IMG/VR virus record: IMGVR_UViG_3300014208_000024
Coordinates: 1-64,000 of that record
Strand: one strand, 5' to 3'
Source: a virus
Taxonomy: Duplodnaviria; Caudoviricetes
Length of the DNA: 64,000 nucleotides
The translations under genes were made by a program, and so were the position numbers. This document shows positions 31,004-31,168 of this stretch, in pieces; the first letter of the stretch is position 1; each line of letters starts with the position of its first letter. The notes beneath the pieces were generated by a model. It ran no database searches. It had not been told where the DNA came from and saw only the letters and a list, made by a program, of their open reading frames with translations.

Positions 31004-31081
31004 TCGGAGAGGAGGGGGTCGAACCCTCATGTGACCAAATTATCCTTTCTATTGTGTATAAGACAAAGGGAATACTCTCCG
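31004..31081 (-). tRNA. Atypical tRNA-Ile(TAT)-like RNA without a conventional D-arm
   Basis: CGGAGAG/CTCTCCG acceptor, TTGT-CTTATAC-ACAA, GAGGG-TTCGACC-CCCTC; AATTTGGT lies 3' of the anticodon arm. Confidence 0.65.
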
Positions 31082-31090
31082 TTAAATTTG

Positions 31091-31168
31091 TAGTCAAGAT
31101 GGGAATCGAACCCACATTTTCAACCAATTACCAGACTCCTGTGTATCAGACAGGGAGGTTACTTGACT
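31091..31168 (-). tRNA. Atypical tRNA-Ile(GAT)-like RNA without a conventional D-arm
   Basis: AGTCAAG/CTTGACT acceptor, CCTGT-CTGATAC-ACAGG, GTGGG-TTCGATT-CCCAT; AATTGGT lies 3' of the anticodon arm. Confidence 0.7.

Follow-up and report, generated by a model that had tools for sequence, protein, structure and literature searches.

Phage genes for putative isoleucine tRNAs with a permuted core

The question raised by this locus is whether two short genes that resemble isoleucine tRNAs, and that carry D-loop-like bases on the wrong side of the anticodon arm, can be working tRNA genes. They lie in a viral genome from a groundwater metagenome (372,283 bp, 28.7% G+C, CheckV completeness 100%), whose first 64 kb (64,000 nucleotides) constitute the window examined here. 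Among sequencing runs, this DNA was traced to groundwater metagenomes and to no RNA run. When the whole genome is searched with ARAGORN, 46 tRNAs are reported that serve every amino acid except isoleucine, among them a Glu gene that is oddly looped. Additional matches to the Rfam "tRNA" model consist of a Phe-like gene, an Ala-like gene, YrlA-like chimeras, and a truncated element, none of which corresponds to isoleucine. The two genes of interest, hereafter called A and B, are called by ARAGORN neither in the window nor in the whole genome, and they represent the only Ile-type genes among the ~50 tRNA genes of this complete 372-kb phage. The window also carries a GOLLD RNA, YrlA-like elements, and dense tRNA arrays on the minus strand. 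An alternative genetic code was considered and set aside, since code 11 already gives dense ORFs and the gain obtained by reading TAA as a sense codon looks like an artefact of AT-richness.

Genes A and B are the final two members of a tRNA block that begins with four canonical tRNA-Lys genes (Table 1). Gene A is located 5 nt downstream of the tRNA-Lys quartet, a gap of 9 nt separates A from B, and the six genes are probably expressed as one transcription unit. A sequence-only reading of this DNA had proposed that both genes have a normal acceptor stem and T arm and lack a D arm at the usual place, and every position assigned to these elements holds on the minus strand. The acceptor stem has 7 bp (AGTCAAG/CTTGACT in gene A and CGGAGAG/CTCTCCG in gene B), with a discriminator A (A73), and its 5′ strand is followed by T8 and A9. 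The T arms (GTGGG-TTCGATT-CCCAT and GAGGG-TTCGACC-CCCTC, respectively) have a canonical 5-bp stem and a 7-nt loop that includes T54, T55, C56, R57, and A58. The anticodon arm of gene A has a 5-bp stem and the 7-nt loop CUGAUAC (CTGATAC in the DNA). In gene B, the stem comprises 4 bp with a bulged U and, potentially, two additional pairs, and the loop is CUUAUAC (CTTATAC). U33 and a purine at position 37 are present in both, and the anticodons GAT and TAT reported initially are confirmed.

Table 1. Locations of genes A and B, their core elements, and the associated leader features in the window.
Feature	Position	Strand	Basis or remarks
Leader ORF of the Lys/Ile block, 25 codons	31657..31734	minus	Precedes the block; encodes MMTTVIIKKSISIKIKKLNEWDIFA; 6 Ile (ATT x4, ATA x2), 5 Lys (AAA x4, AAG x1)
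Terminator-like hairpin, AAAAACCCCA...TGGGGTTTTT plus U-run	31600..31634	minus	Folding; between leader ORF and first tRNA
Four canonical tRNA-Lys genes (CUU, UUU x3)	31174..31484	minus	Directly upstream of gene A, same orientation; spacers 2-9 nt
Gene A, permuted-core tRNA-Ile, 78 nt	31091..31168	minus	Anticodon GAU (31147-31145); Rfam, family models, un-permutation
Gene A, D-stem-equivalent helix, 5′ strand ACC	31157..31159	minus	Pairs with GGT 31130-31132; family covariation
Gene A, 3′ helix strand (GGT), then D-loop-like AATTGGTTGAAAA	31117..31132	minus	AATTGGT motif at 31129-31123; U31116 is the position-48 equivalent
Gene B, permuted-core tRNA-Ile, 78 nt	31004..31081	minus	Anticodon UAU (31060-31058); Rfam, family models, un-permutation
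Gene B, D-stem-equivalent helix, 5′ strand TCC	31069..31071	minus	Pairs with GGA 31043-31045; U31072 is opposite U31042
Gene B, 3′ helix strand (GGA), U, then D-loop-like AATTTGGTCACA	31030..31045	minus	AATTTGGT motif at 31041-31034; U31029 is the position-48 equivalent
Leader peptide, Leu/Cys block			MKTLSLCLCLLLSNC...
Leader peptide, Lys/Ile block			MMTTVIIKKSISIKIKK...
Leader peptide, Thr/His/Asn block			MRTSNIHINTNTHKHNTT...
Leader peptide, Asp/Gly/Tyr/Met/Pro/Ala block			...PMGGYPCAADADYGCGTGM...

The departure from the ordinary tRNA pattern is confined to the core. In the Rfam alignment, the D hairpin (stem 10-13/22-25) is absent between position 9 and the anticodon arm of both genes, where 2 to 4 nt are found in place of the expected 13 to 15, and a 19-nt insertion appears before the T arm. 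Scored with RF00005, gene A reaches 37.0 bits and gene B 28.7 bits, the latter marginally under the gathering threshold of 29. A conventional cloverleaf was rejected as a fold for the pair because 78 nt accommodate three hairpins only. Minimum free energy folding recovers the proposed helices of gene A and favors an alternative pairing for gene B (CCUUU with AAAGG), and the folding energies of the two genes do not differ significantly from those of shuffled sequences (z of -0.6 and -1.1), which is equally so for a canonical tRNA-Lys neighbor (z of -0.8). Thermodynamic folding alone settles nothing here.

Both genes nevertheless contain the parts of a D arm. After T8-A9 comes a 3-nt strand, then one or two bases and the anticodon stem, just as nucleotides 22-25, 26, and 27 follow one another in a normal tRNA. 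The complementary strand lies beyond the anticodon arm and directly precedes a segment of the form A-A/G-Y-U-G-G-U, just as nucleotides 10-13 precede A14-R15-Y16-Y17-G18-G19. This segment, A14-R15-Y-U-G18-G19-U with an A-Y48 end, reads AAUUGGU...A-U in gene A and (U)AAUUUGGU...A-U in gene B. The arrangement supports a core in which two internal segments have been exchanged, such that the order 1-9, 10-21, 22-47, 48-76 of a conventional tRNA has become 1-9, 22-47, 10-21, 48-76. The short helix is best read as a D stem with one strand on each side of the anticodon arm. Its presence directly after T8-A9 had been claimed from the sequence, where it was taken for an extension of the anticodon arm; the helix stands, and its reading is sharpened to that of a D stem.

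To examine this model beyond a single pair of genes, we consider the larger family to which they belong. The same design is present in more than 250 viral contigs, and a collection of 149 unique members was assembled from pattern matches and from covariance-model searches of the matched viral loci. The RNAs are 76 to 82 nt long, and 142 of the 149 carry a UAU or GAU anticodon (TAT in 115 and GAT in 27, followed by CAT in three, TCT in two, and ACG and TAC in one each), although this tally is biased, xAT having been specified in three of the four search patterns. When a pattern was fixed at the T loop and the anticodon stem-loop alone, 19 viral loci sharing the design were obtained. With a pattern indifferent to the anticodon (GGTAAYTGGT, a gap, GGGTTCRA), more than 116 viral loci were matched; among the matches listed, ~85 of 92 unique sites belong to the family, with TAT or GAT as the anticodon in all but one of these. 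When the same pattern was applied to one genome per bacterial or archaeal species, one family member was found among 111 unique sites, on an Omnitrophota MAG contig, and the remaining matches proved to be tRNA-Ser variable arms or coding DNA. The permuted design is almost absent from bacterial genomes and is restricted to phages.

In a blastn comparison with GenBank phages, the common UAU form of the gene matches 80 records, mostly from Streptomyces phages (~77 Streptomyces phage records carry it), and the gene pair of the window gives two partial matches only. Most GenBank records that carry the family leave the gene unannotated, including those of Streptomyces phage Jay2Jay and the crAss-like phage cr130_1, and in Streptomyces phage EGole it is labeled "tRNA-Leu". 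This is a large phage tRNA family that gene finders have missed. A search of openly accessible full-text literature found no description of this tRNA architecture; an earlier report in a subscription journal is possible.

The base-paired elements of the model are supported by nucleotide covariation. Genes A and B themselves differ by compensated changes at acceptor pairs 1, 3, 4, and 5, at T-stem pair 55:69, at anticodon-stem pair 16:30, and in the short helix (A-U/C-G/C-G in A, U-A/C-G/C-G in B), which bears out the early observation that the stems of the two genes covary. Across a 76-sequence MAFFT alignment annotated with the proposed structure, 90% of cells form a standard pair, compared with 65% after shuffling and 36 to 50% when the pairing partner is slid out of register. 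The corresponding covariation scores are 0.62, 0.17, and 0.08 to 0.13. Because GG was prescribed for the short helix by the search patterns, two extra scans were run in which the 3′ strand of this helix was left free and a non-G was forced at its second or third position. Full compensation on the 5′ strand was observed in 77 of the 80 unique sequences recovered, with more than 10 pair combinations represented (CTC/GAG 56, ACC/GGT 7, CGG/CCG 4, CGC/GCG 2, TCC/GGA 2, ATC/GAT 2, AGG/CCT, GCC/GGC, and others). The UCC/GGA helix of gene B is one such compensated variant that is also seen in other phages. The short helix is real, and its covariation within the family is strong.

The exchange of segments can also be reversed in silico. 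A conventional cloverleaf, which the sequence-only reading had held up as the competing fold, is found by ARAGORN in none of 76 family members in their native order. Once the displaced segment is moved back to its canonical location, 66 of the 76 are called as tRNAs (61 as Ile-tat and 3 as Ile-gat), compared with 25 of 76 in a control in which the relocated segment was shuffled. All 11 un-permuted GAU-type sequences, gene A among them, are called if a 3-bp D stem is allowed. Under these terms un-permuted gene A is called as a tRNA-Ile(gat), and un-permuted gene B is called as a tRNA-Ile(tat). The AATT(T)GGT motif, noted from the outset as a D-loop-like element between the anticodon arm and the T arm, is indeed in place, and on un-permutation it supplies A14, R15, G18, and G19.

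These bases are also the ones that the family retains. U8, the A14 equivalent (149 of 149), G18, G19, the A just before Y48, T54, T55, C56, and A58 are invariant, and the 7-bp acceptor stem, A73 (likewise invariant), U33, and A37 are kept throughout. The nucleotides equivalent to the 15-48 pair covary in the manner of a Levitt pair; tallied by alignment column, they are A-U in 138 members, G-C in 7 that belong to different lineages, and another combination in 4, an association that is significant by Fisher's test with relatedness left uncorrected (p = 1e-9).

Taken in the encoded order, each RNA would have a standard acceptor stem, T arm, and anticodon arm. The closing strand of the D stem (22-25) would directly follow U8-A9 and lead into the anticodon arm, after which a short A-rich linker would serve as the equivalent of the variable region. 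The opening strand of the D stem (10-13) would then run into A14-R15-Y-U-G18-G19-U, a few further bases, Y48, and the T stem. Given this order of strands, the D stem and the anticodon stem would therefore form a single continuous hairpin, which would match the coaxial stack of a normal tRNA, and the open "D loop" would retain the ability to form the contacts behind the L shape (U8-A14, R15-Y48, and G18/G19 to the T loop). In the known tRNA fold, each of the new junctions (9 to 22, the end of the anticodon stem and linker to 10, and 21 to 48) joins positions that are neighbors in the L. By analogy with that fold, we infer that the L shape is kept.

Could the genes instead be decayed tRNA pseudogenes, chance resemblances, or tRNAs for which a cloverleaf fits better? 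The failure of ARAGORN to call A and B and the slightly subthreshold Rfam score of gene B would be expected from such sequences. However, the 149 unique members occur on hundreds of phage contigs, each helix of the structure shows compensatory changes, and none of the 76 native sequences gives a cloverleaf. Covariance models provide further evidence. A first family model, R1, scored gene A at 74.1 bits and gene B at 85.4 bits. Because R1 contained genes A and B, a second model, R2, was derived from 102 sequences found on other contigs, leaving the window out. A covariance search had been suggested as a check on the original observation, and R2 indeed finds B with 84.1 bits (E 4e-19) and A with 68.9 bits (E 3e-15), whereas no ordinary tRNA in the window exceeds 28.4 bits; exactly two family members, A and B, are present in the 372-kb genome. 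With E-values from an independent model of 1e-15 to 1e-19, the resemblance of A and B to the family is far beyond chance. Decay or coincidence is refuted by conservation and covariation, and we give it essentially no weight.

The arm order of the tRNA cloverleaf is among the most conserved features in biology, and comparison with known exceptions helps to define what is unusual about these genes. Canonical tRNA-Ile (RF00005; GAU, k2CAU, or UAU) shares with A and B the acceptor stem and A73, the 5-bp T stem with its TTCRA loop, U33 and A37 of the anticodon loop, the Ile anticodons, placement in phage tRNA arrays, and the core bases U8, A14, R15, G18, G19, and Y48. It differs in having a D hairpin between positions 9 and 26, whereas in A and B the anticodon arm is enclosed by the two strands of the D stem, and the bases of the D loop are left as an open strand leading into the T stem. 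Because this hairpin is missing, A and B are not canonical RF00005 cloverleaves. The D-arm-lacking tRNAs of mitochondria resemble the phage genes in their three-helix structure, short connector after the acceptor stem, and extended anticodon helix. In these mitochondrial RNAs (mammalian mt-tRNA-Ser(AGY) and nematode examples), loss of the D-loop bases, frequently accompanied by loss of the canonical T loop, leaves a flexible, shrunken core (PMC7609411). Genes A and B, in contrast, are of full length, belong to phages of bacteria, and keep G18, G19, A14, and a canonical T loop, with only the location of the D-arm bases altered.

Permuted order in a gene does not necessarily mean permuted order in the mature RNA. 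Genes for tRNAs in the alga Cyanidioschyzon merolae also depart from the canonical order of segments. According to the work of Soma as it is cited in PMC10085705, these are circular permutations of the whole gene, and circularization followed by cleavage restores a normal tRNA. One might therefore imagine that cleavage and re-ligation turn the phage transcripts into a conventional cloverleaf, a possibility to which the RNA ligase and kinase encoded by some family-bearing phages lend some appeal. The C. merolae genes have internal acceptor ends joined by a linker, whereas the acceptor strands of A and B are at the ends of the gene and internal segments alone are swapped. Such a swap is non-circular, and restoring order would require two cuts and two ligations. 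Moreover, no conserved bulge-helix-bulge or intron-like signals are present, and the covariation of the helices and of R15/Y48 is satisfied in the permuted order as encoded. Restoration by processing is thus highly improbable in our estimation, and the mature A and B RNAs most likely keep the permuted order. Non-circular permutations have been reported in self-cleaving ribozymes (NAR 2023) by a study according to which none had previously been known in natural RNAs, and tRNA is not among the cases described (PMC10085705). The phage genes and those ribozymes share a natural reordering of segments in which the three-dimensional positions of key nucleotides are presumably kept.

We then considered whether the genome has a use for two such RNAs. 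Isoleucine codons make up 8.5% of its codons, with ATT (43.0 per 1000, the sixth most used codon) and ATA (37.4 per 1000, the ninth) in heavy demand and ATC rare (5.0 per 1000), so that a GAU and a UAU anticodon cover exactly this need. The phage encodes a protein of the PolyA_pol/CCA-adding family, which fits tRNA genes that lack an encoded CCA. Neither TilS (PF01171) nor IleRS (PF00133) was found in the phage genome.

Regulatory sequence points in the same direction. Each of the four tRNA blocks in the window is preceded by a leader ORF in which residues decoded by the tRNAs of its own block constitute a fraction of 0.40 to 0.53, compared with 0.04 to 0.16 for mismatched leaders and blocks; the value for the Lys/Ile leader and its own block is 0.46. 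The description of this leader as rich in ATT and ATA codons is upheld. Ile accounts for 6 of its 24 residues against a background of 0.085 (p = 0.014), and the other three leaders, with 0 of 25, 3 of 28, and 0 of 36, show no such enrichment. An Ile-rich leader thus precedes a block whose only Ile-type genes are A and B, which means that, in its own regulatory sequence, the phage associates Ile codons with this block. The terminator-like hairpin, a strong one, follows the leader ORF upstream of the first tRNA. A promoter and terminator scan of positions 30800-31900 called no terminator, probably because the loop of this hairpin exceeds the 8-nt limit of the scan. A promoter-like match at 31759-31730 was set aside because it overlaps the leader start codon.

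On this combination of sequence features, we consider it likely that A and B are working Ile tRNA genes built on a permuted core, with a predicted role in Ile decoding. RNase P and 3′ trimming would release each RNA, and CCA would be added after transcription because none is encoded. Host IleRS would recognize the anticodon, A37, and A73 of both species and charge them. The GAU species would read AUU and AUC, and the UAU species would read AUA without lysidine. Bacteria that lack TilS, such as Mycoplasma mobile, employ a tRNA-Ile(UAU) to decode AUA without lysidine. That cellular RNA has the UAU anticodon in common with gene B and forms a normal cloverleaf, and A and B differ from it in their permuted core and phage origin. 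A bypass of TilS by the UAU anticodon, as originally suggested, is plausible. Two points weigh against this account: in bacteria, an unmodified UAU anticodon would be expected to misread AUG, and the identity set of bacterial IleRS reportedly includes elements of the D arm and D loop.

This last point bears on a reading in which the rewired core shifts synthetase identity, giving RNAs that serve another amino acid or another decoding role, for example as mis-sense or regulatory tRNAs. The D arm contributes to tRNA identity in several systems, and some family members bear Arg (TCT, ACG), CAT, or TAC anticodons on the same body, which indicates that the body is not strictly specific for Ile. However, the anticodon is the dominant determinant for IleRS, an xAU Ile anticodon is found in 142 of 149 unique members, and A73 never varies. 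A shift in identity would also leave the phage without any Ile tRNA in spite of its Ile codon content. We regard this reading as very unlikely.

A more serious competitor to the view that A and B decode Ile is that they are tRNA mimics rather than substrates of translation, acting, for example, as decoys or sponges for host defense nucleases that target tRNAs, for modification enzymes, or for IleRS, and kept in tRNA arrays through shared processing signals. These phages invest heavily in tRNA repair (Jay2Jay has an RNA ligase, a polynucleotide kinase, and Ro), and canonical tRNA-Ile genes co-occur with the permuted gene in Jay2Jay and in three other family-bearing loci (L003, L006, and L016). 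The genome described here also contains other tRNA look-alikes in the form of YrlA-like elements. YrlA-type Y RNAs (RF02553) and the permuted genes are both phage-encoded tRNA look-alikes, yet YrlA modules sit on a Ro-binding stem without a free acceptor end, whereas A and B stand alone with a complete acceptor stem and discriminator. Against mimicry, A and B are the sole Ile tRNAs of a complete genome in which all other amino acids are served, their two anticodons divide the Ile codons according to usage, and Ile codons abound in the leader ORF of the operon to which they belong. Furthermore, conservation extends to the 7-bp acceptor stem, A73, U33, A37, and the T loop, not all of which would be required in an RNA that distracts an anticodon nuclease. 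We therefore judge mimicry unlikely, even though it is the strongest of the alternatives.

Canonical Ile(tat) and Ile(gat) genes are annotated in Jay2Jay in addition to the permuted gene, and the same is true of the other three loci; therefore, the permuted design is not simply a replacement for the canonical one. It may serve a separate or further purpose, for instance to resist or divert host factors that recognize the D arm. In the most comprehensive form of our proposal, which we favor by a narrow measure, the family represents a natural topological isomer of tRNA, produced by non-circular permutation, that would adopt the L fold, be charged by IleRS, and decode Ile codons for many unrelated phages, including giant groundwater phages, Streptomyces Samistiviruses, crAss-like phages, and marine phages. 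Selection would perhaps have favored the rewiring for concealing the RNA from host enzymes that recognize the D arm (defense nucleases or modification enzymes, for example) while leaving translation unaffected.

If this proposal is correct, the L shape of tRNA does not require canonical connectivity, since every base that makes a core contact would be kept while the chain is threaded differently. The family would serve as a natural case in which to test the true demands made on a tRNA by RNase P, the CCA-adding enzyme, IleRS, EF-Tu, modification enzymes, and the ribosome, and the isolated Streptomyces and crAss-like phages that carry it are systems amenable to biochemistry. It would also explain the "missing" Ile tRNAs of phage genomes, in which standard gene finders and GenBank annotation overlook these genes, with the consequence that phage tRNA censuses, and the codon-usage arguments built on them, undercount isoleucine.

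The phage carries suppressor-type tRNAs for two stop codons (Table). Despite these, its ORFs are dense under the standard code, and TAA is the stop codon of 170 of the 202 long ORFs in the phage. The three tRNAs with a long extra arm are class-I amino-acid tRNAs, and Asn, Met, Val, Asp, Trp, His and Glu tRNAs of 84-95 nt also occur in many related phage loci. Outside the window, a gene with a shortened anticodon loop is the sole candidate Glu tRNA in the 372-kb genome (G000), and a plus-strand tRNA-like gene, which received no ARAGORN call, is well formed in its acceptor stem and its T arm but unclear in between. 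Within a 468-aa open frame, the genome also encodes a nucleotidyltransferase of the PolyA_pol/CCA-adding family.

Tool-based placement in the fetched viral loci (L numbers) indicates that the permuted-core family, in which the D-stem strands flank the anticodon arm, extends beyond TAT and GAT to CAT (Met or Ile2), TAC and the Arg anticodons ACG and TCT. The permuted tRNA of Streptomyces phage EGole has an Ile anticodon and is labeled “tRNA-Leu” in its record; in Jay2Jay and most sister phages, the corresponding gene has no annotation.

Other structured RNAs in the window include a full-length GOLLD RNA and a match to the bacterial small SRP RNA, here located in a phage genome. Two subthreshold YrlA-like matches share the motif AGAGTTACTTCGCA with a tRNA-like module at 35061-35126 that is devoid of an acceptor stem. 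A 152-nt Rfam “tRNA” match at 47856-48007 is a chimera spanning both YrlA-like matches.

Features of the window, the whole phage genome (G000) and fetched viral loci. R1 is the covariance model of the permuted-core family, built with the window genes included.
Feature	Location	Strand	Detail
Leader ORF	window 24225-24305	minus	precedes a tRNA block
Leader ORF, Lys/Ile block	window 31657-31734	minus	hairpin with U-run after ORF
Leader ORF	window 35216-35305	minus	precedes a tRNA block
Leader ORF	window 51600-51713	minus	precedes a tRNA block
Suppressor-type tRNA	window 33634-33706	minus	UUA (reads TAA)
Suppressor-type tRNAs (two)	G000 74251-74324, 75335-75409	minus	CUA (reads TAG)
Met/CAT tRNA	window 48522-48610	minus	long extra arm, 89 nt
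Thr/UGU tRNA	window 33139-33225	minus	long extra arm, 87 nt
Cys/GCA tRNA	window 23807-23891	minus	long extra arm, 85 nt
tRNA, 70 nt	G000 76998-77067	minus	6-nt anticodon loop; ARAGORN “Glu|Arg (tc)”
tRNA-like gene	G000 340622-340701	plus	R1 31.4 bits
PolyA_pol/CCA-adding family nucleotidyltransferase	G000 283652-284089 (outside window)	minus	94.6 bits
YrlA (Y RNA-like) match	window 47808-47888	minus	35.8 bits (threshold 69)
YrlA (Y RNA-like) match	window 47974-48057	minus	30.8 bits (threshold 69)
GOLLD RNA	window 41517-41900	minus	RF02032, 226.6 bits
Bacterial small SRP RNA match	window 42370-42453	minus	42.3 bits (gathering score 40)
Permuted-core, ACG, TCT, CAT or TAC	L008:634-709, L015:2084-2163, L020:9730-9809, L003:6052-6128, L015:1329-1405, L007:1730-1807, L034:4-80		tool-based placement
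EGole permuted tRNA	L132:295-371 = NC_055791.1 75265-75341		loop CTGATAA (GAT)

Each of the four tRNA blocks in the window is preceded by a short leader ORF. The residues encoded by the four leaders are enriched for the amino acids of their own tRNA block, with a match of 0.40-0.53 compared with 0.04-0.16 off the diagonal. The arrangement looks like leader-peptide attenuation of the tRNA operons in the window.
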